32,000 nt of DNA from Moraxella nasicaprae. Its GTDB lineage: Bacteria; Pseudomonadota; Gammaproteobacteria; Pseudomonadales; Moraxellaceae. A program made the position numbers and the translations under genes. Positions within the stretch are counted from its first letter, which is position 1, and each line of letters opens with the position of its first letter. The notes under the pieces were generated by a model, which did not search any database, was not told the DNA's origin, and saw only the letters and a list, made by a program, of their open reading frames with translations. The stretch spans positions 840,001-872,000 of the forward strand of contig NZ_CP089977.1 in assembly GCF_025643275.1 (NCBI RefSeq), read 5' to 3'. Below are positions 1,504 through 16,165 of the stretch, piece by piece.

Positions 1504-3990
1504 CTAAAATTTAAAGGTCAATTCTGCCAAATATTGTCGTCCGATTTCAGATTCTAGTGACGAGCCGTTTAGGTATTTGTTTTGGCGGTTTAGGACATTA
1601 TTGACCGTTACGCCCAAGATGGTTTGGTAGCGGTTGCCAAACGCATATTGGGCTTTTGCGTCCCATTCTAACGCACCCCCAATGTGCGTGGGGTTGTAGG
1701 CGGTGCGTACCAGTTCACCGTCATGATAAAACTGTTCGGCAGTAGGCAAACGACTGCCAACAGTAGCTTGATAATCAGTGCGATATCGCAGGGTATTGGT
1801 GAGTGTAAGCGGAATTTTGTGAAATTGGCTATTAATTCCTAGTCGATAGGTTCTAGGCTGGTTGTAGTTGTCAGCAGGTCTGTCCACATTGGCGATGACT
1901 TGACCATTATATAGGACGTATTTGTCTTCGTTGAGTGTGCTGTCGTCATAATCGTTAAAATTGCGATAAACATCGCTGACATCTGCACCAAAATACAACT
2001 GGTGATTTGCCCCTGCAAAGTCAAGCGGTTTTAGGGTGTTTAGAGTTAGACTATAATTTTTGGCATGACTTTGCCCCAGATTGTCATAGGACCACACAAG
2101 AGGTGAGAGGCTGACTCGGTAACGGCGAATCTGGTCTTTGTAGTCTCGTTCTACATATTTAAGCTGCCAAGCAGTATTATAAGCCTTACCAAACAATGTC
2201 AACACCTTTTCATCTGCATAAGGTGTGGCAAGAGTGTTGCGACTGGTATTGGTTGCCAATAAATTACCTGAGGTTACCCAGTCACTGTTGATATTGGTGC
2301 GAGTTTGTGTCCAGCCAAGTTTATTGATGCCGTCTTGTAAAGCAGTATTAAAAGCATTGCGTCCATAATAGCGGTTGTAGCCGACATCAATCGCCAGTTT
2401 GTCATTGGCAAATGGATAATAAGTTGCATTTAGGCGTGGGGAAAGCGTATCATCACGGCTTAGATTATCTTTGTCAAAACGCACACCAAGATTGGCTTTT
2501 AGATAGTCGCCAAAACTTAGATGGTTTTCAAGATAAGCCGACCAACTTGTTTGATTGACGTCAATTTTACCTGCTTGATTGTAAGTGCGGCGAACATGAA
2601 ACTGTCCGACAGTTTTGCCGTTTCGTTCATATGTAGGGTCGCAATAAGGGTCAGTTGTACCGTCTGTACGCACACAGTTTGTACCATCGCCCCCAGTAGC
2701 GTTAGGAGCAAAATATTGATAAAAATCATGAGGGCGATACCAATTGGCAGTTTGTTTGCTTAGATTCGCCCCCAGTGTTGCTTGATAACCAAACCAGCCT
2801 TTTTGGTAGGGATTGAAGACAGATTTGACATGATATTCTAGGGTTTTGCCATGATGTTCCAAAGGGGAGCCTGCTGTCCCATCTGTTACCACACCTGCAA
2901 CTCCCCAATTTTTGGCAGGTGATGACCGCCAAGGAACAGATTGGTTGGCATCGGTGGTGCGAGCTTGCTCTTTTTGGCTGTATGTTAGCCCGTGGGTCAA
3001 AACAGCGTTTTGCAACGCATGTTTAAAGGATAAATCAAAAGCATTCACTTGGGTGTTGATGTCCATGCGACTGCCCAAAACATTGTTTTGGTAGTACTCT
3101 CCGCCTGTGGTAGCATGGTTTAGATTTAATTTAACTTGGTTATCATCATCAATATCATAATACAATCCAAACATGACATTATCAGCTTGGCGTGTTTGGT
3201 TATAAGGGCGTGCGTCTGCTAGGCGAGATTTTAAATAAATATCCGACCAGCGATGAGATGCAGATAATTGCACACCAAGATTTTTGGTGGGATTGCCGTG
3301 CAGGGTTAAAGACACACCTTGTTTTTTGAATTCTTTTTGGTAATTGACATTGGTGCTGTCTTCAAAATTATCAATTTCAGATTGCGATACAGGATTAAAT
3401 TTTGCCCAATCACTACTGGTATAATCATAGCTAACACTTCCATGAATTTTACCAACATCACTGGTGGGGCGACAGGTATTTGCTTTAACCACCCCACCAA
3501 CAAAACTACCGTATTGAGCAGAGATATTACTATCCAAGACTTCTAGGCTGCACAATAAGTCTGTGTTGATTGTGATGTCTTGGGCGGTGGCAGGCAAAGA
3601 ATCAGTAGCAGATGGATTATCTCCATTACCCGCAGGATTAATGGTATTAGCGATATTAATGTTGTCTAGTAGGATTTTGTTATCATAAAACAATGCTCCA
3701 TTAATGCTAAAATCCCCTGCTGATAGCTCGCCTTGCTTACCTGCACGGCGATGAGCTTTGTCAAATTGAATGTTGGGGTGTTGTTTTAGAATGTCGCTGA
3801 CAGTTTTATTGATGGTGGGGGCATTAGCAAGCTGTTGTTGAGTTTGGACGGTCTTGCCTGTTGTTCGTTCTAATGTGATGAACATTGGGTCAAGCTCAAC
3901 ATAAGGCAGTTCATCAGCATAAGCAGACGCACTGATAATCATCATTGATATGATAAGGAGAGTAGGTTTAGTAGTCATGGCTTTTCTCAT
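1504..3990 (-). CDS. TonB-dependent outer-membrane receptor
   Basis: 828-aa ORF with an N-terminal signal peptide (..ISASAYA/DE) and a plug-like N-terminal region. The body is long and rich in beta-strands with many Tyr, Asn and Gly residues, and the C-terminus ends in an aromatic residue (..AELTFKF). An alternative start is Met5 at 3978. Confidence 0.85.
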   Translation of the reverse strand: MRKAMTTKPTLLIISMMIISASAYADELPYVELDPMFITLERTTGKTVQTQQQLANAPTINKTVSDILKQHPNIQFDKAHRRAGKQGELSAGDFSINGALFYDNKILLDNINIANTINPAGNGDNPSATDSLPATAQDITINTDLLCSLEVLDSNISAQYGSFVGGVVKANTCRPTSDVGKIHGSVSYDYTSSDWAKFNPVSQSEIDNFEDSTNVNYQKEFKKQGVSLTLHGNPTKNLGVQLSASHRWSDIYLKSRLADARPYNQTRQADNVMFGLYYDIDDDNQVKLNLNHATTGGEYYQNNVLGSRMDINTQVNAFDLSFKHALQNAVLTHGLTYSQKEQARTTDANQSVPWRSSPAKNWGVAGVVTDGTAGSPLEHHGKTLEYHVKSVFNPYQKGWFGYQATLGANLSKQTANWYRPHDFYQYFAPNATGGDGTNCVRTDGTTDPYCDPTYERNGKTVGQFHVRRTYNQAGKIDVNQTSWSAYLENHLSFGDYLKANLGVRFDKDNLSRDDTLSPRLNATYYPFANDKLAIDVGYNRYYGRNAFNTALQDGINKLGWTQTRTNINSDWVTSGNLLATNTSRNTLATPYADEKVLTLFGKAYNTAWQLKYVERDYKDQIRRYRVSLSPLVWSYDNLGQSHAKNYSLTLNTLKPLDFAGANHQLYFGADVSDVYRNFNDYDDSTLNEDKYVLYNGQVIANVDRPADNYNQPRTYRLGINSQFHKIPLTLTNTLRYRTDYQATVGSRLPTAEQFYHDGELVRTAYNPTHIGGALEWDAKAQYAFGNRYQTILGVTVNNVLNRQNKYLNGSSLESEIGRQYLAELTFKF

Positions 3991-4009
3991 TAATCATAAT
4001 ATTAATAAT

Positions 4010-8948: not shown

Positions 8949-9443
8949 ATGACAGTATTCACCTCCCAAAAAGCTGCCGTTACTCACATTGACGGTGCAT
9001 TACACAACAATCAAAACCTACGCATCGGCATCGCTGTTGGGCGTTTTAATGGCTTTTTGGTTGAAAGTTTGGTTGAAGGAGCGTTAGACGCTCTACTTCG
9101 TCACGGTGTCCTTGGCGAAAACATCACGGTCGTGCGTGTACCAGGGGCATTTGAGTTGCCTTTGACTGCCAAGCGTATGGCAACTTCTGGCAAATTTGAT
9201 GCCATTGTGGTGCTTGGGGCAATCATTCGTGGGGCGACACCGCATTTTGACATCGTGGCAAGTGAGAGTGCCAAAGGTCTCTCCAAAGTCGCCTTAGACC
9301 ATGGCATTCCTGTCATCAATGGCATCTTGACCACCGAAAACATTGAGCAGACCATCGAACGAGCAGGCACAAAGGCTGGCAACAAAGGCTATGAAGCTGC
9401 CATGACCGCCATTGAAATGGTTAGCGTTCTACAAGACATTTGA
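8949..9443 (+). CDS. ribH: 6,7-dimethyl-8-ribityllumazine synthase
   Basis: [27 protein letters not shown] and [12 protein letters not shown] motifs. The start is set at ATG 8949 (MTVF..), inside the longer tracked ORF. Confidence 0.9.
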
Positions 9444-9463
9444 CACAATACTGTCAGCACTTA

Positions 9464-9503
9464 GGCAGGTGCTTGATGATTATAAAGCTCCTGCCAATTT
9501 TTT
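9464..9503 (+). terminator. Intrinsic terminator or attenuator hairpin between ribH and nusB
   Basis: ggcaggtgctt (9464-9474) pairs with aagctcctgcc (9485-9495) at 10 of 11 positions, followed by aatttttt. Confidence 0.5.
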
Positions 9504-9548
9504 CCATTAAAAGATGATTTTAATGCAGCACTATTTATAAGGTAAATT

Positions 9549-10094
9549 ATGACCAACATCACGCCCGACAACGACCAATTTGACATCAACGAAACAGGCT
9601 ATAAGACCACCCACACTGCTGTTCGCAAAGCTCGCCGTTTTGCCCTACAAGGTCTATATGAGTGGCTTTTGACCGACCATCGTTTTGCCAAAATCGACCG
9701 CCATCTGATGGGTGGTAACGAACCGCACACCATCGCTGCTCGCACTCGTGCAGATAATGCCATGCATACGGTACATCTAGGCTATTATCACGAAATGATG
9801 CGTCGCATTCCCGAAAAAGCTGATGAATTGGTGATGGAGTTGGCACAACACATCGACCGTAGTTTTGACCGTCTAGACCCCATCGAAAAAGCGGTACTAC
9901 TTATCGGTGCTTATGAACTCAAATACAGTCTGCATATCCCTTACAAAGTGGTGCTTGATGAAGCGATGCAACTAAACACTCACTTTGGGGCAACCGATGC
10001 CCATAAGTTCATCAATGCGGTGTTGGACAGATATGCCAAGCAGACACGAGAGCTTGAATATCAAGCCAACAAAGCTCAAAAATCTACAAAATAA
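9549..10094 (+). CDS. nusB: Transcription antitermination factor NusB (long-N-terminus form)
   Basis: The [14 protein letters not shown] and FINAVLD motifs are present, and the gene sits directly after ribH. Confidence 0.9.
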
Positions 10095-10110
10095 GAACTG
10101 ACAATAAACC

Positions 10111-10141
10111 AAAATACGCTATTGCAAAATGGCGTATTTTT
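10111..10141 (+). terminator. Candidate rho-independent terminator after nusB
   Basis: aaaatacgc (10111-10119) pairs with gcgtatttt (10132-10140) around a 12-nt loop, and a T-run follows. Confidence 0.5.
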
Positions 10142-10157
10142 CTATAAAAGAGGCTAA

Positions 10158-11030
10158 ATGGCACAAAAACATCATGCTAACCATCGTCAGCAATACGATG
10201 ATGACATCTTTTTAATCAAAAAGAATAAAAAGTTTGGACTGGTTGATAAGAATAACAGCCCCATCACATCGGTGATGTATGATGATATTTTGCCACCTGA
10301 AAATGGTTTGTTTCGTGCCATTTTAAACGATGAGTGGTACATATTAAATCAACAAGGTCACGCCATAAGTCCTGCTTATCATTATATTGGCTACATTGAA
10401 GACAATCGTACCAAAGTTAAGTTATTTGACAAATTTGCCTTGTTTCATATCGACAATGGCTTATTGACGGATTTTGTATTTGATGGGATTGATGATTTCA
10501 TCGAAGACCTAGCACGCATTCGTCAAGGCGACAAGTATGGCTATCTTGATAGAAATGGGCAAATTGTGATTGATTGTCGATATGACGATGCGGGTTATTT
10601 TTCACAAGGATTAAGTTACGCCCGAAAAGATGACAAATATGGCTATATTGATGCTCAAAATCAAACAGTCATCGATTTTATTTATGATGATGCTGACTCA
10701 TTCAGTGAAGACTTGGCATCAGTGATGAAAGATGGCAAGACTGCCTTTATTGACAAAACTGACAAAGTGATGATTGGCTGGGCGGACTATGAAGCCAAAT
10801 ATTTTTTGCGTGGTGTCGCCCAAATCATCATTGATGAAAAAATTGGCTTTATAGATAAAGCAGGTCATATAATGATTGAACCACAATTTGACTATGCCAG
10901 TTATTTTGATGAAGAAACTGATTTGGCAAATGTAGAAAAAGACGGCAAAGAATTTAAAATTAACCGTCAAGGAAAGCAAGTAGGTAAGGCTAAGCAGGCT
11001 TTGCATTGGACTGACATATTTTTGACTTAA
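10158..11030 (+). CDS. WG-repeat (KWG-type) protein, cytoplasmic
   Basis: 290-aa ORF with about six tandem degenerate repeats of the type DKYGYLDRNGQIVIDCRYDDAGYFSQGL, KYGYIDAQNQTVIDFIYDDADSFSEDL and KIGFIDKAGHIMIEPQFDYASYF. There is no signal peptide. Confidence 0.7.
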   Translation: MAQKHHANHRQQYDDDIFLIKKNKKFGLVDKNNSPITSVMYDDILPPENGLFRAILNDEWYILNQQGHAISPAYHYIGYIEDNRTKVKLFDKFALFHIDNGLLTDFVFDGIDDFIEDLARIRQGDKYGYLDRNGQIVIDCRYDDAGYFSQGLSYARKDDKYGYIDAQNQTVIDFIYDDADSFSEDLASVMKDGKTAFIDKTDKVMIGWADYEAKYFLRGVAQIIIDEKIGFIDKAGHIMIEPQFDYASYFDEETDLANVEKDGKEFKINRQGKQVGKAKQALHWTDIFLT

Positions 11031-11039
11031 AAGGAATCT

Positions 11040-12005
11040 ATGAGCGAATTTTCTTTAATCCACACCCATTTTAAACACGCCACCGCCAAACACAAAAACA
11101 CCATGTTGGGCATTGGCGATGATTGTGCGGTAAGTGCCATTCCTTCTGATTGTGAACTCATCAGCTGTGTCGATACGCTGGTGGCAGGACGGCATTTTGT
11201 GTTTGAGACCGACCCACACGCCATCGGGTTTAAATCGGTAGCGGTGAATTTATCGGATTTGGCAAGTATGGGAGCAACGCCTTATGCAATTTTATTGGGA
11301 TTATCTTTACCAAATAATGATAATGAGTGGTTAAAAGAATTTAGTCGTGGTATTAGCGATATTTGCCAAAAGTTTAATGTGGAGTTAATCGGGGGCGATA
11401 CCACAAAGTCGGATATTCTGACCATTTCTATTACCGCACTTGGCTTTATTAAAAAAGGCAAAAGCATAAAAAGAAATAATGCCAAAATCGGCGATGTGAT
11501 TTGTGTCAGTGGCAATATTGGCTCGGCAAGTTTGGCATTAAATCATATTTTGGGCGAAAATGGACATTGCAAACATTCTAACTCCTTAAATGATTTATCG
11601 CCCACATTATGCACCGCCCTACAATACCCAACGCCACAAATTGATTTGGGACAAAAGTTAATTGACTATGCCCACAGCATGATTGACATTTCGGACGGCT
11701 TGGGGCAAGATTTGGGGCATATTTTAAAAAATAGCGGTATGGGAGCAAAGCTGTATTTGGACAATATCCCTTGTGCTGATGAATTAAATGCTTTGCCGTT
11801 TGATAAAAAATATCAGCATATTTTAAATGGTGGCGATGATTATCAACTTTGTTTTACAATATCAAAAGATAAATTTGATGAATTTAATATGCTTTATCCT
11901 AATTTAATTTACCCCATTGGCGAAATTGTAGAAAAACAAGGGGTGGAAATTTATTATCAAAATCAAATATTGGATTTTGAGATTAAAGGTTGGGAGCATT
12001 TTTGA
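11040..12005 (+). CDS. thiL: Thiamine-monophosphate kinase
   Basis: IGDDCAV, DTLVAGRHF, AVNLSDLASMGA, GGDTT and DISDGL motifs in a 321-aa protein. The last two-thirds of the gene are visibly more AT-rich than the first ~240 nt. Confidence 0.9.
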   Translation: MSEFSLIHTHFKHATAKHKNTMLGIGDDCAVSAIPSDCELISCVDTLVAGRHFVFETDPHAIGFKSVAVNLSDLASMGATPYAILLGLSLPNNDNEWLKEFSRGISDICQKFNVELIGGDTTKSDILTISITALGFIKKGKSIKRNNAKIGDVICVSGNIGSASLALNHILGENGHCKHSNSLNDLSPTLCTALQYPTPQIDLGQKLIDYAHSMIDISDGLGQDLGHILKNSGMGAKLYLDNIPCADELNALPFDKKYQHILNGGDDYQLCFTISKDKFDEFNMLYPNLIYPIGEIVEKQGVEIYYQNQILDFEIKGWEHF

Positions 12006-12583
12006 TGAGCTTACAAACTGATAACATAGAAAAAACCGAACGCCTAATCCGTGAAATTAACTTAATTCACGCCAAATATTCGTCAGATTATTTTGAAACA
12101 GGAAAAGTGGAAAAAATCAATTTAAGCCGTAGCTTAAAAAATATTCCAACAGAACATATTTTCTCTTATCGGCTCAATTTACACGAAGCGATTAACGATT
12201 ATTTGTTATTTTCTGACACCAAAGATATTAACTTTTATTATCGTGTCAAAACTTCTGAAAGCATTCAAGATAAAATTGAGCGTTATTTAAATCGTCAAAA
12301 TCAATACCCAACCAATAATATTTTAAATGACATTTTTGGGGCAAGAATTGTTTTGCCGTCTGATGATATTGCCATTATTTTGGAAAAATTGGACAATTAC
12401 AAAGACAAATACAGTCTTAAAAATTGGTATTTAAGAGATGTTGATGGTTATGTTGGTATCCATATTTATTTTAAAAATTCTAGTAATTTTTATTACCCTT
12501 GGGAATTACAAATTTGGGACGAAAATGACGCATTAAGCAATATTAAAAATCATATACTTTATAAAAGAAATTTTGTTAAATAA
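12005..12583 (+). CDS. RelA/SpoT-domain nucleotide pyrophosphokinase (small alarmone synthetase or toxSAS-like), 192 aa
   Basis: The synthetase motifs appear in the expected order: YRVKTSESIQDKIERY (R.K...S...K), NDIFGARIV (D..G.R), DGYVGIHIYF (GY...H) and WELQIWD....NHILYKR (E.Q......H...YK). ATG 12005 overlaps the thiL stop (TGATG), with a GGGAG SD sequence 7 nt upstream. The gene is strongly AT-rich. Confidence 0.75.
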   Translation: MSLQTDNIEKTERLIREINLIHAKYSSDYFETGKVEKINLSRSLKNIPTEHIFSYRLNLHEAINDYLLFSDTKDINFYYRVKTSESIQDKIERYLNRQNQYPTNNILNDIFGARIVLPSDDIAIILEKLDNYKDKYSLKNWYLRDVDGYVGIHIYFKNSSNFYYPWELQIWDENDALSNIKNHILYKRNFVK

Positions 12584-12600
12584 TTTGAGAGCGAAAGGCA

Positions 12601-13011
12601 ATGAATGAAATTCCATCGCATTTAATTTTTGGTAACACCTATTCTGATTTTGAAAAGAAGAAAGGTAATCCAACCGAATTTCTACCTATTAGCAAAGAAT
12701 TGGCTGACGAATTGGGCGTGCAAGTTGAAAATTGTGCCTTTTTTCCTTATAGTGGCGAAACAATGAAACCAACTCTAAATGGCAAGGGTATTATGCTTGC
12801 TGATTTGTCCGATAATAAATTACAAGATGGTAAAATCTATCTTTTAAGTATCAATTCCAGACTAGTTGTTAGGCGAGTGCAGATTTTATTAGATAAAATT
12901 ATTTTAATTGCAGATAATCCAAAATACCAAAATATTGAAGTTTTTGGCGAGCATTTAAATAATTTAAAGGTAATTGGAAGATTGCGTTATATTATGCAAA
13001 ATTTTGATTAA
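12601..13011 (+). CDS. Stand-alone S24 (LexA/CI C-terminal-like) peptidase-fold protein with no HTH and a substituted catalytic dyad
   Basis: Residues 46-135 align by eye with the LexA and lambda CI C-terminal domains: SGETMKPTL against G(M/N)SM, and LVVRRV against TVKRL. Thr54 and Arg91 occupy the Ser and Lys positions, with the same 37-residue spacing as LexA S119-K156. Only about 45 aa lie N-terminal to the domain. Confidence 0.65.
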   Translation: MNEIPSHLIFGNTYSDFEKKKGNPTEFLPISKELADELGVQVENCAFFPYSGETMKPTLNGKGIMLADLSDNKLQDGKIYLLSINSRLVVRRVQILLDKIILIADNPKYQNIEVFGEHLNNLKVIGRLRYIMQNFD

Positions 13012-13041
13012 TTTATTGATAGAAATATAAGTAAAATTGTT

Positions 13042-13668
13042 ATGACTAACCACAAACCCGATATTTATAAATCCAACCTGTGTCCGCCTTGCCCACCCAC
13101 CGCCACCGCCTTTGAAAGATGTGTGTATTGGCTAGGCATTGGGCTTGGTTCTGGTCTGCCCAAAAAAGCCCCTGGTACTTGGGGAACGGTGGGTGGACTT
13201 GTTATTGCTATGCCAATGTTATTATTGGGGTTTTGGGGGTTTTTGATTATTACCATTATTGGCTGTTTAATTGGTAGTTATATTTGTGGTAAGACTTCGG
13301 ATTTGATGAATGTTCACGATGACCCACATATTGTGTTTGATGAATGGGTGGGAATGTGGATTGCATTATTGCCCTATTCCTATTTTATTTTCAACGGTCA
13401 AGACATGCATGAACTCATTTGGCTTGGGGTTGGAGCATTGATTGCCAATCCTGTCATGACCATCTTTGCAACCATATTGGCTTTTCTACCGCCTTTTGCC
13501 CTATTTCGCTTTTTTGACATTATTAAACCATTTCCGATTAAATGGGTGGATAAAAATGTCTCGGGTGGATTTGGTATTTTGATTGATGATGTATTGGCAG
13601 GGATAATGGCGGCATCTGGTGTACTGCTTACCGTTTGGGGTATGGTGGCTGTGTTTGGTATGTCTTAG
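13042..13668 (+). CDS. pgpA: Phosphatidylglycerophosphatase A
   Basis: GLGSGLPKKAPGTWGT, DDPHIVFDEWVGMW, FRFFDIIKPFPI and DDVLAG motifs. Confidence 0.9.
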   Translation: MTNHKPDIYKSNLCPPCPPTATAFERCVYWLGIGLGSGLPKKAPGTWGTVGGLVIAMPMLLLGFWGFLIITIIGCLIGSYICGKTSDLMNVHDDPHIVFDEWVGMWIALLPYSYFIFNGQDMHELIWLGVGALIANPVMTIFATILAFLPPFALFRFFDIIKPFPIKWVDKNVSGGFGILIDDVLAGIMAASGVLLTVWGMVAVFGMS

Positions 13669-14232
13669 ATGATTGCTGATTATTCTGTGGATTTGGGACT
13701 GATTGTTTTAATAATAAGTGCCGCATTGTTATTTGCCTTTAAACGAGCTGCCAGCTTGCACGAGTATCCAAAAGAACAAATTTTATATGCTTTTTTATTA
13801 TTTGGCGGTGCATTAGGCGGTATCTTGACCGCAGGACTGATGATATTATTTAGTCTGTCGGCAGAAGACTGGCAATCCTTGTCATTACAATCACTTGATG
13901 TCGCCATCATCGCTCAATCATTGCTTGGTGGCGTTGGCTTATTCGGCATTACTGGGGCATTTATCGGTCTGATTCCAGCAGTCATCACAGGCATCATCAT
14001 TACCAAAAAACGCTTCACTCTTGTGGCAGTAAGCGAGTATTTGTCAGTCTTTATCATCGGATTTTTGGTCAGTTTGCCCATGGTCTTATTGGTGCACTAT
14101 TTATTTTTTGAAGAGATTTTAATCACCATCAAAGAACTCTTATTTATCCTTACCCCCTGTATTTCTGGTGGATTGTCCGCTATGATTTTGCTTAGGCTGT
14201 TTGTGCCAAATCGCTCACTCCATCAAAAATGA
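13669..14232 (+). CDS. Hypothetical multi-pass membrane protein
   Basis: 187-aa ORF with 5-6 predicted hydrophobic helices. Its ATG immediately follows the pgpA TAG (tagatg). The 3' end overlaps the convergent murI by 18 nt. Confidence 0.5.
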   Translation: MIADYSVDLGLIVLIISAALLFAFKRAASLHEYPKEQILYAFLLFGGALGGILTAGLMILFSLSAEDWQSLSLQSLDVAIIAQSLLGGVGLFGITGAFIGLIPAVITGIIITKKRFTLVAVSEYLSVFIIGFLVSLPMVLLVHYLFFEEILITIKELLFILTPCISGGLSAMILLRLFVPNRSLHQK

Positions 14233-15063
14233 CACAGGCATACCCGCCAATCTATTGGCAGTTGCTCGTACGCTGTCGGTCAAATCTGACGCATAAAACT
14301 GCACCTGCGTGCTGGCAGTGTTCGTATCATTTTGGGCGATTTTAAACAATTCCAACAACGACTGCACTCGCTTGGCGATGGCAACCCCAGAATCAATCAA
14401 AGTCATCTCAATGCCCTGCTCATCAATCCACGCCTGCAAAAACTCCCTAAAAAACGGATAATGCGTACAGCCTAGCACGATGACATCAACGCCCATCTGT
14501 TGCCATTTTTTGGTTTGCTCAATCAGTAAATCTGCCACCTGATGTGTGATGGGCATTCCCTGCTCCACCCACGGCACAAGCATTGGTTCAAAGTGCTTAT
14601 ATACTGTAATACCATTTGGTGTCGCCACCTCGTCAATCACTTGGGTCAGTAGCCTGCCTTGTAATGTTGCCTGCGTGGCAAGCACCGCTATTTGTCCTGT
14701 TTGAGTGATTTGGCAGGCTGGCTTGACCGCAGGCACCAGCCCAACAATCGGCACATGGCAACGCTCTCGTAGGGCGGACAAGGCGTGAGCTGAGGCACTA
14801 TTACAGGCAATGACGACCAATTTACAGCCCTTTTTACACAGCCAATCCACCGCCTGTAAAGTCAGTAACAAAATCTCATCGGCAGATTTGTTACCATAGG
14901 GAACATTTTTGGTATCGGCATAATAAATATAGCTTTCATACGGCATCAACGCCGCCAAATGACGCAAGACCGATAGACCGCCCACGCCAGAATCAAACAC
15001 ACCAATCGGTGCTAAATTTGATGAATGATGGCTATCAAAGACAGGTTGGGTCGTCATAATCAT
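14215..15063 (-). CDS. murI: Glutamate racemase
   Basis: IGVFDSGVGGLSV, ACNSASA and GCTHYPF motifs. The alternative start is Met3. Confidence 0.9.
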   Translation of the reverse strand: MIMTTQPVFDSHHSSNLAPIGVFDSGVGGLSVLRHLAALMPYESYIYYADTKNVPYGNKSADEILLLTLQAVDWLCKKGCKLVVIACNSASAHALSALRERCHVPIVGLVPAVKPACQITQTGQIAVLATQATLQGRLLTQVIDEVATPNGITVYKHFEPMLVPWVEQGMPITHQVADLLIEQTKKWQQMGVDVIVLGCTHYPFFREFLQAWIDEQGIEMTLIDSGVAIAKRVQSLLELFKIAQNDTNTASTQVQFYASDLTDSVRATANRLAGMPVSFLME

Positions 15064-15585
15064 TGCTCGTTTGGCTGATATTTTTGTGTGTATTTTAGCA
15101 CCACTGATTTATTTTAGCATTATTTTATCATATTCTGACGGTAATTCTTGATGATTTGGCTGAATGTACCGCACCGAGCAAATGCACTTGTATGAGAGAT
15201 TTTAAGCGTTTTAGACTTAGCCATCAAATAAACGAAAACACCGACCTAAAAAAACAGGCTAAAAACTAGCCAAAGACGAACAGGAACGCCAAGAGAAAGA
15301 GCGAGCCGAACAGCGAAGAAAAACACTCATTTAAAATGCCTGAGAGCCTAGATGAGCAATACCAAGGGCAGGCCCTTGATGAAGTTGCCAAGAGTTTTGA
15401 TAACAGTATTTTTTTCAAAGTGGTTCAAGGAGGCATGAGAGCAAAGAGTAGCCCATAAAGACCCTAAATTCATTGGTAAGTTTTATGAGTTGTTTGGGTG
15501 GTGAAAGTAAATCTTATTTCAGTTGATTTTAAAAATATATCAATGTAGAATAAGTGAATTGTTTAATTTTAGAAGGGGTAAGACT

Positions 15586-15858
15586 ATGCTCAAGAAAACA
15601 TTAATTGTTTCAACAGCTTTACTTAATATGATATTATTTCCAGCAGTAGCCCAAGCCAAAACTTATACAGATACTGCAAAATGTGCAGTTATTGTGCATG
15701 ATAAAAGTATTGCTCCTGCCAATCCACCACAATGGGTAACAGGTACAGGTACAGGAAAAACTAAAGCACTGGCTTGTACGGCTGCGAAAAAGAATGCAAC
15801 GAGCAAAGCTCCAAGAGGCACTTATGCTCGTCATTGTGATTGCGGTAAAAGAATTTAA
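15586..15858 (+). CDS. Small secreted basic protein with four cysteines (90-aa precursor, about 66 aa mature), unknown function
   Basis: ATG 15586 is preceded by an AGAAGGGG SD sequence. The signal peptide is MLKKTLIVSTALLNMILFPAVAQA/KT. The mature part is rich in Lys and Arg and has 4 Cys (C..C......CDC). The gene is AT-rich. Confidence 0.55.
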   Translation: MLKKTLIVSTALLNMILFPAVAQAKTYTDTAKCAVIVHDKSIAPANPPQWVTGTGTGKTKALACTAAKKNATSKAPRGTYARHCDCGKRI

Positions 15859-15868
15859 GGAGTTTTAA

Positions 15869-16165
15869 ATGCCAATAGGCTATGAAGAAGTAGTCAGAAC
15901 CGTTGTTTTTGATGTAATTGATACAGATGATGATGGTTTGGTTTATAGGCTTGAAGTACTTAAATCCAGTAATGGATTTAGGGGGCAATTATTCAGATTG
16001 GATTCATTTTCTTTGGAATGTTCTTTTTCTGATAATAAGCCTGATGAAAGTTTTTATGTGCTAGACACCCATTCTCATTCTGTAGATTTGGATGAAAAGG
16101 TATTTGATGACCCACAAAGTTGCATTGATTTTGTTGCCAATGCCTTACAAGAAAACTTTTCTTAG
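15869..16165 (+). CDS. Small acidic cytoplasmic protein (98 aa), unknown function, coupled to the upstream secreted protein gene
   Basis: It starts 10 nt after the upstream stop, with GGAG in the gap. It is rich in Asp and Glu and has no signal peptide or TM helix. A strong terminator follows. Confidence 0.5.
   Translation: MPIGYEEVVRTVVFDVIDTDDDGLVYRLEVLKSSNGFRGQLFRLDSFSLECSFSDNKPDESFYVLDTHSHSVDLDEKVFDDPQSCIDFVANALQENFS

Follow-up and report, generated by a model that had tools for sequence, protein, structure and literature searches.

We analyze a 32,000-nucleotide (nt) stretch of the Moraxella nasicaprae genome (hereafter, the window, to which coordinates refer unless another locus is named; the genes listed below lie on its + strand), in which two short genes of low guanine–cytosine (GC) content separate the housekeeping genes thiL and pgpA. 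The first, which we call rel, encodes a RelA/SpoT-type synthetase; the second encodes an S24-like protein with a domain of the LexA/CI C-terminal type. A first-pass annotation of the window had read the two as a toxin–antitoxin (TA) or sensor–effector system. We find that the thiL/pgpA junction is an intra-operon variable site in Moraxella for single low-GC, same-strand accessory genes, and that rel and the S24-like gene probably reside at it independently of each other, rather than as a toxin–antitoxin pair. The overall explanation that we consider likely is a variable site with two unrelated residents, of which rel would be a stand-alone pyrophosphokinase. The features concerned are as follows.

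11040..12005, + strand: thiL, thiamine-monophosphate kinase, the upstream housekeeping gene (Pfam AIRS 110.7 bits, AIRS_C 32.3 bits).
12005..12583, + strand: rel (gene 1), 192 amino acids (aa), ATG start, a single-domain RelA/SpoT synthetase fold, probably FpRel2 (Pfam, profile search, AF2/Foldseek, PHROG).
12584..12600, + strand: 17-nt spacer between rel and the S24-like gene, with a Shine-Dalgarno-like GAGAGCGAAAGG (sequence; terminator scan).
12601..13011, + strand: S24-like gene (gene 2), 136 aa, LexA/CI C-terminal-type domain, no helix-turn-helix (HTH) domain (Pfam, alignments, PHROG).
13042..13668, + strand: pgpA, phosphatidylglycerophosphatase A, the downstream housekeeping gene (Pfam PgpA 113.1 bits).

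The two genes are seldom found together. Rel occurs without an S24 gene at the thiL/pgpA junction in seven other Moraxella genomes (loci L002-L008), where the leftover gaps measure 0–88 base pairs (bp) and all catalytic residues are intact, except for H183R in L007, a metagenome-assembled genome. The S24 gene stands there without rel at six further loci from three lineages (L088-L093), and both genes share the junction only in the window, in L001 (‘M. lacunata’ NCTC10359) and in Moraxella sp. ZY210820. With an S24 hidden Markov model built here, we also searched for S24 neighbors within 5 kb of rel at 80 genomic loci drawn from genera such as Neisseria, Kingella and Streptococcus; an S24-domain open reading frame (ORF) was found at a single one of them, L001. 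Rel stands without an S24 neighbor in Neisseria, Kingella, M. osloensis and Streptococcus as well, and what does adjoin it is heterogeneous (pgpA, a lipoprotein gene, parC, punA, leuD, ddc). The conserved adjacent antitoxin of type II TA systems built on toxic small alarmone synthetases (toxSAS) is thus missing from rel, which is solo in L002-L008 and at 79 of the 80 genomic loci. In Neisseriaceae, homologues of the S24-like gene (47–50% identity) lie 13 bp after tex (L081-L087) with no rel nearby. The proposed pairing is unlikely on these grounds, because a required antitoxin could not be lost while an intact toxin stays under strong selection.

The junction itself is a site of turnover. In a metagenome survey, thiL and pgpA are directly adjacent, with a gap of 21–29 bp, in more than 20 Moraxella-like contigs; together with the ORFs and the 17-nt spacing, both of which we could confirm, this bears out the first-pass description of two low-GC genes lodged between normally adjacent neighbors. 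Other strains carry different cargo at the same place: a GmrSD type IV restriction enzyme of 675–677 aa (PADLOC HEC-06, E 6e-45), an S-adenosylmethionine methyltransferase, and two unrelated secreted proteins that have no Pfam match and share a common leader sequence. All junction cargo lies on the same strand, has a GC content of 0.28–0.38 versus 0.43–0.50 in the flanks, and leaves little space to the thiL stop on one side and to the pgpA start on the other. No flanking repeats or att-like sequences were found at the cargo boundaries. A survey of this junction and a co-occurrence check, both suggested by the first-pass annotation, therefore went against its pairing: the pair is not fixed in relatives, where each gene occurs solo, the junction is empty, or other cargo fills it. 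The loci with these other single low-GC genes at the junction are L101, L104, L110 and L111 (about 1970-4004), L099 (3222-3995), L097/L100/L116 and L106/L109/L115/L150.

In the window, the gene order is ribH, nusB, a WG-repeat gene, thiL, rel, the S24-like gene and pgpA. The thiL stop TGA and the rel start ATG overlap as TGATG, 30 nt separate the S24-like stop from the pgpA start, and the GC content is 0.29–0.30 at 12001-13000 versus about 0.43 across the remainder of the window. A terminator scan gave no terminator-like site between rel and the S24-like gene, a search for repeats and RNA antitoxins gave no tandem repeats besides a 16-nt chance match, and an Rfam scan of 9000-15500 returned zero matches. 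Public databases already contain annotations of the two genes: exact NCBI matches from M. nasicaprae describe rel as a ‘GTP pyrophosphokinase’ (UXZ05618.1) and the S24-like protein as an ‘S24 family peptidase’ (UXZ05619.1).

Sequence divergence bears on the history of the two residents. The ratio of nonsynonymous to synonymous divergence (dN/dS) is 0.03–0.08 for rel, lower than that of thiL or pgpA, and 0.14–0.16 for the S24-like gene; both are under purifying selection, and therefore neither is a chance ORF. In L005, L007 and L008 the synonymous divergence (dS) of rel is as saturated as that of the flanks, so rel has long resided there without the S24 gene. Between the window and L001, the block of rel and the S24-like gene is 91–100% identical at the DNA level, with a dS of 0.12–0.20, versus 45–85% and 1.0–1.6 for the flanks; the comparison with L002 shows the same contrast for rel alone. 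As the dS of the block is far below that of its flanks, the two genes were recently exchanged as a unit. Their joint travel is no proof of a functional link, because adjacent genes are expected to move together.

Judged by its sequence, rel is most likely a complete, catalytically competent RelA/SpoT-type pyrophosphokinase. It matches Pfam RelA_SpoT (PF04607) at 28.1 bits (cut-off 27, E 2.7e-6) over profile positions 2-111 of 113, and precomputed PF04607 matches exist for most of its homologues. The synthetase motifs that the first-pass annotation had picked out are all present (R80.K82...S86...K90, D109..G112.R114, G148-Y149...H153, E167.Q169 and H183...K187), and each is conserved in 117–121 of 121 homologues. 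The family comprises 679 clusters at 90% identity and is strikingly conserved, with 61–91% identity across Moraxella, Neisseria, Kingella, Eikenella, Alysiella, Cardiobacteriaceae, Actinobacillus and many Streptococcus. About 12% of 90%-identity clusters carry substitutions at otherwise invariant catalytic residues, which could reflect either a costly enzyme that was inactivated time and again or artifacts of metagenome assembly. The substituted clusters include P0042, P0057, P0060, P0066-P0068, P0077, P0079, P0080, P0086, P0092 and P0096, with the changes R80W, R80P+K82T, D109N, G112W, Y149C+H153C (twice), Y155C, E167K (three times) and H153D.

The nearest solved structure is FaRel2, the toxSAS of Coprobacillus sp. 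D7 and the toxin of the faRel2/aTfaRel2 type II TA system (PDB 8PU1, 8PU3, 8PU4). When the rel-family profile was compared with the sequences of solved structures, FaRel2 was the sole match (E 3.3e-7), and no RelQ or RelP chain was matched even at E up to 10. An AlphaFold2 (AF2) model of rel, with a predicted local distance difference test score (pLDDT) of 84.3 and a predicted template-modeling (pTM) score of 0.81, has the three-dimensional toxSYNTH/small alarmone synthetase (SAS) fold by Foldseek. Its best match is again FaRel2 (E 3.6e-8, template-modeling (TM) score 0.49–0.57, 26% identity); RelQ and RelP are weaker (E ~1e-4, TM ~0.33), and these three proteins make up the best 18 matches. 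The toxSAS resemblance noted in the first-pass annotation therefore holds. In the fold comparison with RelQ, FaRel2 and CapRel that it suggested, made with the rel model alone, FaRel2 came first and CapRel was absent from the best matches.

Rel shares with FaRel2 the single-domain toxSYNTH fold of about 200 aa and the residues that matter for catalysis: D90 (Mg2+), Y128 (G-loop) and Y134 of FaRel2 align with D109, Y149 and Y155 of rel, and the ExQ and HxxYK(R) motifs are common to both. It differs in having neither an ATfaRel2-like antitoxin gene nor any conserved neighbor. It also ends 4 residues past HxxYKR and therefore lacks the ~39-residue C-terminus of FaRel2, which stabilizes the toxin–antitoxin complex. 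PhRel (Phrann gp29/gp30) and CapRelSJ46 resemble the rel family in being RelA/SpoT-fold enzymes of prophage regions that are expressed in the lysogen; in Streptococcus prophages, members of the rel family lie between cI and int. PhRel, however, requires the neighboring antitoxin gp30, and CapRelSJ46 carries a fused C-terminal antitoxin/sensor (pseudo-zinc-finger) domain, whereas rel, at 192 aa, has neither, and neither protein is among the best sequence or fold matches of rel. The PADLOC profile PDC-S33 matches rel partially and weakly, over positions 63-152 of its 349 positions; a literature search found no paper mentioning PDC-S33.

Among the published subfamilies, rel most likely belongs to FpRel2, a sister of the tRNA-pyrophosphorylating toxins FaRel2 and PhRel2. 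We assign it there, as a probable member, because organisms listed in a census of RelA/SpoT homologues carry close relatives of rel, and because the clade fits FaRel2 as the nearest structure. That census placed fpRel2 in Firmicutes and beta-proteobacteria and tabulated entries for N. gonorrhoeae FA1090, S. agalactiae 2603V/R and S. equi (Atkinson 2011); in S. agalactiae 2603V/R, fpRel2 stands alongside only Rel, RelP and RelQ (Atkinson 2011). Homologues of rel are 75% identical in N. gonorrhoeae and 66% identical in prophage Javan5 of S. agalactiae 2603V/R, so the taxonomic range agrees with that published for FpRel2 (Atkinson 2011; Jimmy 2020), except that Moraxella is gamma-proteobacterial and lies beyond it. 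FpRel2, PhRel2 and FaRel2 form a supported clade in the published phylogeny, and FpRel2 is absent from the list of subfamilies with TA-like gene neighborhoods. Our literature search found no experimental work on FpRel2, and a paper on the stringent response of N. gonorrhoeae is silent on SAS genes.

On its sequence, gene 2 is a catalytically dead, domesticated copy, without an HTH, of the C-terminal domain of a Mu-like phage repressor. Pfam Peptidase_S24 (PF00717) matches the 136-aa protein at 41.8 bits (cut-off 23.3, E 1e-10), and a Pfam scan of it gave no HTH domain, so that both domain calls of the first-pass annotation, RelA_SpoT and S24 without HTH, stand above their cut-offs. It further matches PHROG phrog_6201, ‘CI-like repressor’ (E 5.7e-17). 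In an alignment with UmuD, LexA and phage repressors, the position of the catalytic Ser is Thr in the window protein (GETM) and Val or Ala in its relatives, and that of the catalytic Lys is Arg (VRRV) in every aligned family member; both Ser and Lys are retained in the outgroups UmuD, LexA, Javan5 CI, a Mannheimia phage repressor and P0317. With the Ser-Lys dyad replaced, the S24-like protein is therefore a pseudo-peptidase. It shares with LexA, UmuD and lambda CI the S24 beta-barrel domain, and with UmuD its approximate size and the absence of an HTH. Unlike these proteins, the family has lost the dyad throughout, and the S24-like protein lacks a DNA-binding domain, a umuC partner and any recognizable Ala-Gly or Cys-Gly cleavage site.

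The S24-like family is small, with about 46 clusters of uniformly 135–140 aa from Moraxella and Neisseriaceae. The next matches beyond it are HTH+S24 phage repressors of 206–220 aa, the closest being the Mu-like repressors of Mannheimia, Pasteurella and Haemophilus phages (28–32% identity). An AF2 model of the protein, built from a 13-sequence alignment, was too poor for use (pLDDT 42.6). Most plausibly, gene 2 acts through the protein–protein contacts that are typical of LexA/CI C-terminal domains. At the tex site, the S24-like homologue is followed by a 107-aa ORF and recC in L083-L087, and in Neisseria elongata (L094) a RhuM/HsdM/HsdS type I restriction-modification island lies between tex and the S24-like gene.

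Beyond chromosomes, the rel family inhabits mobile elements. Rel itself matches PHROG phrog_4012 (E 3.7e-66), and homologues with 66% identity occur in S. agalactiae prophages and Streptococcus satellites. In Javan5 (L177, 2699-5563), a cI repressor gene (HTH_3+S24, intact dyad) is followed 1 nt later by rel, then by a 60-aa ORF and int. Across the IMG/VR loci, rel follows a same-strand cI repressor in 34 of 34 (L182-L215), directly so in 32; in the remaining two, an HTH+S24 repressor lies 0.5–0.9 kb upstream. These prophage repressors have several N-terminal types and two classes of C-terminal domain that are 38% identical to each other, and the Streptococcus CI is only 18% identical to the S24-like protein of the window. 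The slot downstream of cI is the usual place of lysogen-expressed accessory genes. We consider the adjacency of rel and S24 in prophages to be a by-product of the architecture of the lysogeny module, because canonical repressors that differ greatly among themselves accompany a conserved rel, because the gene order is reversed, and because most rel genes have no S24 neighbor. Non-phage elements are represented too: a B. thuringiensis plasmid carries rel, as do S. salivarius megaplasmids, on which genes for a type IV secretion system (T4SS) ATPase and an AcrIIA9-family protein lie beside it.

Several further observations concern the surroundings of the rel family. In the satellite Javan292, a Fic/DOC gene comes after the rel homologue. 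In L179 (3986-7588), from the S. salivarius megaplasmid NZ_CP018188.1, genes of conjugation type (DUF3854, T4SS ATPase, PcfJ) surround a homologue with 57% identity, which is two genes from an annotated Cas9 inhibitor gene of the AcrIIA9 family, which may hint at an anti-defense or leading-region context. Two ORFs with a 4-bp overlap were considered as partners of rel and rejected: the one in Neisseria is an over-extended lipoprotein ORF, and the one in M. cuniculi encodes a PEBP-family protein.

We propose that two unrelated residents are stacked at the thiL/pgpA junction of M. nasicaprae and would be read through from the host operon, as the stop/start overlap, the short spacers and the lack of a terminator suggest. 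By homology to FaRel2, rel would bind ATP as pyrophosphate donor through R80/K82/S86/K90 and D109, and would stack an acceptor adenine or guanine on the G-loop Tyr149, the counterpart of FaRel2 Y128. It would work without a dedicated neighboring antitoxin. The S24-like protein, which rel would not need, would act only by protein–protein contact, for example by pairing with LexA/CI-type proteins. As for the role of rel, we tentatively lean towards a lysogen- or host-expressed growth-arrest or anti-phage enzyme that stays inactive until triggered and then pyrophosphorylates the tRNA 3'-CCA or makes (pp)pApp/(p)ppGpp. Pointers to such a role in conflict are the clade, the mobile-element habitats, the site held in common with a restriction enzyme, the PDC-S33 match and the catalytic substitutions, and PhRel gp29, a prophage product that protects against superinfection, sets a precedent.

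A less likely role, to which the long and constrained residence in a housekeeping operon points, is that of a low-activity, tolerated accessory alarmone synthetase. Stated as a rival to the explanation above, rel would be a non-toxic accessory SAS that supplies RelA-independent (p)ppGpp for host physiology, with the S24-like gene unrelated to it; we regard this, too, as rather unlikely. Rel is embedded in and translationally coupled to the operon, its dS in L005, L007 and L008 indicates long vertical inheritance, purifying selection on it is very strong, it has no antitoxin, and the SpoT of Moraxellaceae has lost its synthetase sites (Atkinson 2011). However, rel is nearest to FaRel2 by both sequence and fold, and not to the housekeeping enzymes RelQ, RelP or RelV; no housekeeping SAS structure was matched by sequence at the permissive threshold given above, the fold similarity is low, and the C-terminal helix region of RelQ/RelP-type enzymes is missing. 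The patchy distribution, the prophage, satellite and megaplasmid habitats, the use of the junction by GmrSD in other strains and the substituted catalytic residues likewise tell against it. The fallback offered by the first-pass annotation, a housekeeping SAS of the RelV or RelQ type, thus named the wrong subfamily, since rel fits FpRel2; a non-toxic physiological role keeps the modest probability stated here.

We consider it improbable that the two genes form a TA or sensor–effector defense system in which the S24-like protein binds and gates a toxSAS. Such a system would agree with two adjacent, same-strand genes of matching low GC only 17 nt apart, with their movement as one block between two divergent Moraxella and their presence in at least three isolates, and with the membership of rel in a clade whose toxSAS members normally need a neutralizer. 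The Streptococcus prophages, in which rel begins 1 nt after an S24-domain CI repressor, could be read the same way. Yet solo rel persists at the same site in seven Moraxella with its active site intact (but for the one substitution in L007) and under the strong selection described above, rel is solo in the other genera as well, and the S24 gene lacks a neighboring rel in three lineages and at the tex site. The repressors of the prophages have their full length and an intact catalytic dyad, and they diverge to 38% between classes and 18% from the S24-like protein while rel stays 65–70% identical, unlike cognate TA partners; their order (cI then rel) is also the reverse of that in the window. 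One remark of the first-pass annotation was right in this regard, in that our literature search found no paper pairing a toxSAS with an S24 protein.

A broader version of the same idea is slightly less probable still, namely that S24-fold proteins are the natural gate of FpRel2 enzymes, as the CI C-terminal domain in Streptococcus prophages and as a free-standing, non-cleavable pseudo-S24 in Moraxella. The antirepressor of a superinfecting phage, or RecA*, would then disturb the S24 protein and release a tRNA- or nucleotide-pyrophosphorylating arrest, and solo rel would use an S24 protein encoded elsewhere; we give this sequence of events equally little credence. One result does keep the idea of an S24 partner alive in favor of the first-pass annotation: prophage rel always comes after a full-length HTH+S24 CI repressor. 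Equally remote is an eroded lysogeny module, in which a repressor C-terminal domain and a lysogen-expressed rel would have outlasted a decayed prophage, for although both proteins match phage families (phrog_4012, phrog_6201), cI and rel adjoin in Streptococcus prophages, and Mu-like phage repressors are the closest kin that the S24-like protein has beyond its own family, there are no further phage genes, att sites or integrase near the pair, the order (rel then S24) is opposite to that in prophages, both genes are under purifying selection, each occurs solo at the site with clean boundaries and no trace of the other, and identity between the Streptococcus CI and the S24-like protein is just 18%.

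Returning to the explanation by two unrelated residents, with rel as a stand-alone pyrophosphokinase, several observations weigh against it. The rel family in Streptococcus prophages is always alongside an S24-domain repressor. The pair moved jointly between M. nasicaprae and ‘M. lacunata’ NCTC10359 and is present in ZY210820 too; such a transfer would be explained by simple adjacency and equally by a functional linkage. Our comparison was made on loci, and rel-only genomes may hold an S24-like paralogue or a small alarmone hydrolase in trans. Strongly constrained and inherited vertically for a long time within a housekeeping operon, rel resembles a gene of host physiology more than a defense gene with fast turnover. 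As for a tRNA target, of six mapped residues of the FaRel2 tRNA interface, R42, K133 and Y155 are kept in rel and S41, N46 and N105 are not, which is a further difference from FaRel2, and the rel protein is near neutral, with an isoelectric point of about 7. The net charge of the aligned cores is -1 for both FaRel2 and rel and is uninformative as a test of tRNA binding. Overall, the first-pass observation of two inserted genes is confirmed, and its interpretation is partly supported.

The neighborhood offers some further observations. Between nusB and thiL, at 10158-11030, the window encodes a 290-aa WG_beta_rep protein (Pfam 161 bits, 5 repeats) with a GC content of 0.35–0.38; relatives such as L088 have a nusB-thiL gap of about 55 bp, and L003 has a WG-repeat gene in that gap. 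With this gene present in some genomes and a ~55-bp gap in others, nusB/thiL is a second variable junction in the same operon. On the other side, a 187-aa multi-pass membrane protein with zero Pfam or NCBIfam matches is encoded at 13669-14232, starting 1 nt past the pgpA stop, where L088 and L093 have glmU after pgpA. Two small low-GC ORFs follow at 15523-16165, one of 111 aa with a signal-peptide-like N-terminus and one of 98 aa that is acidic.

If the two genes did form a TA pair, toxSAS enzymes would gain an antitoxin with a new fold; the evidence speaks against such a pair. The interest lies instead with the rel family, an antitoxin-less member of a clade of tRNA-pyrophosphorylating toxins that is under unusually strong purifying selection and is 65–75% identical from Moraxella and N. 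gonorrhoeae to S. mitis, S. pneumoniae and the prophages of group B Streptococcus. The thiL/pgpA junction, for its part, neatly illustrates a variable site inside an operon, where a GmrSD restriction enzyme is among the single accessory genes gathered. How rel is tolerated without a neutralizer, and what its target is, would mark the border between housekeeping alarmone synthetases and toxSAS effectors, and could uncover a prophage-encoded function in major mucosal pathogens.

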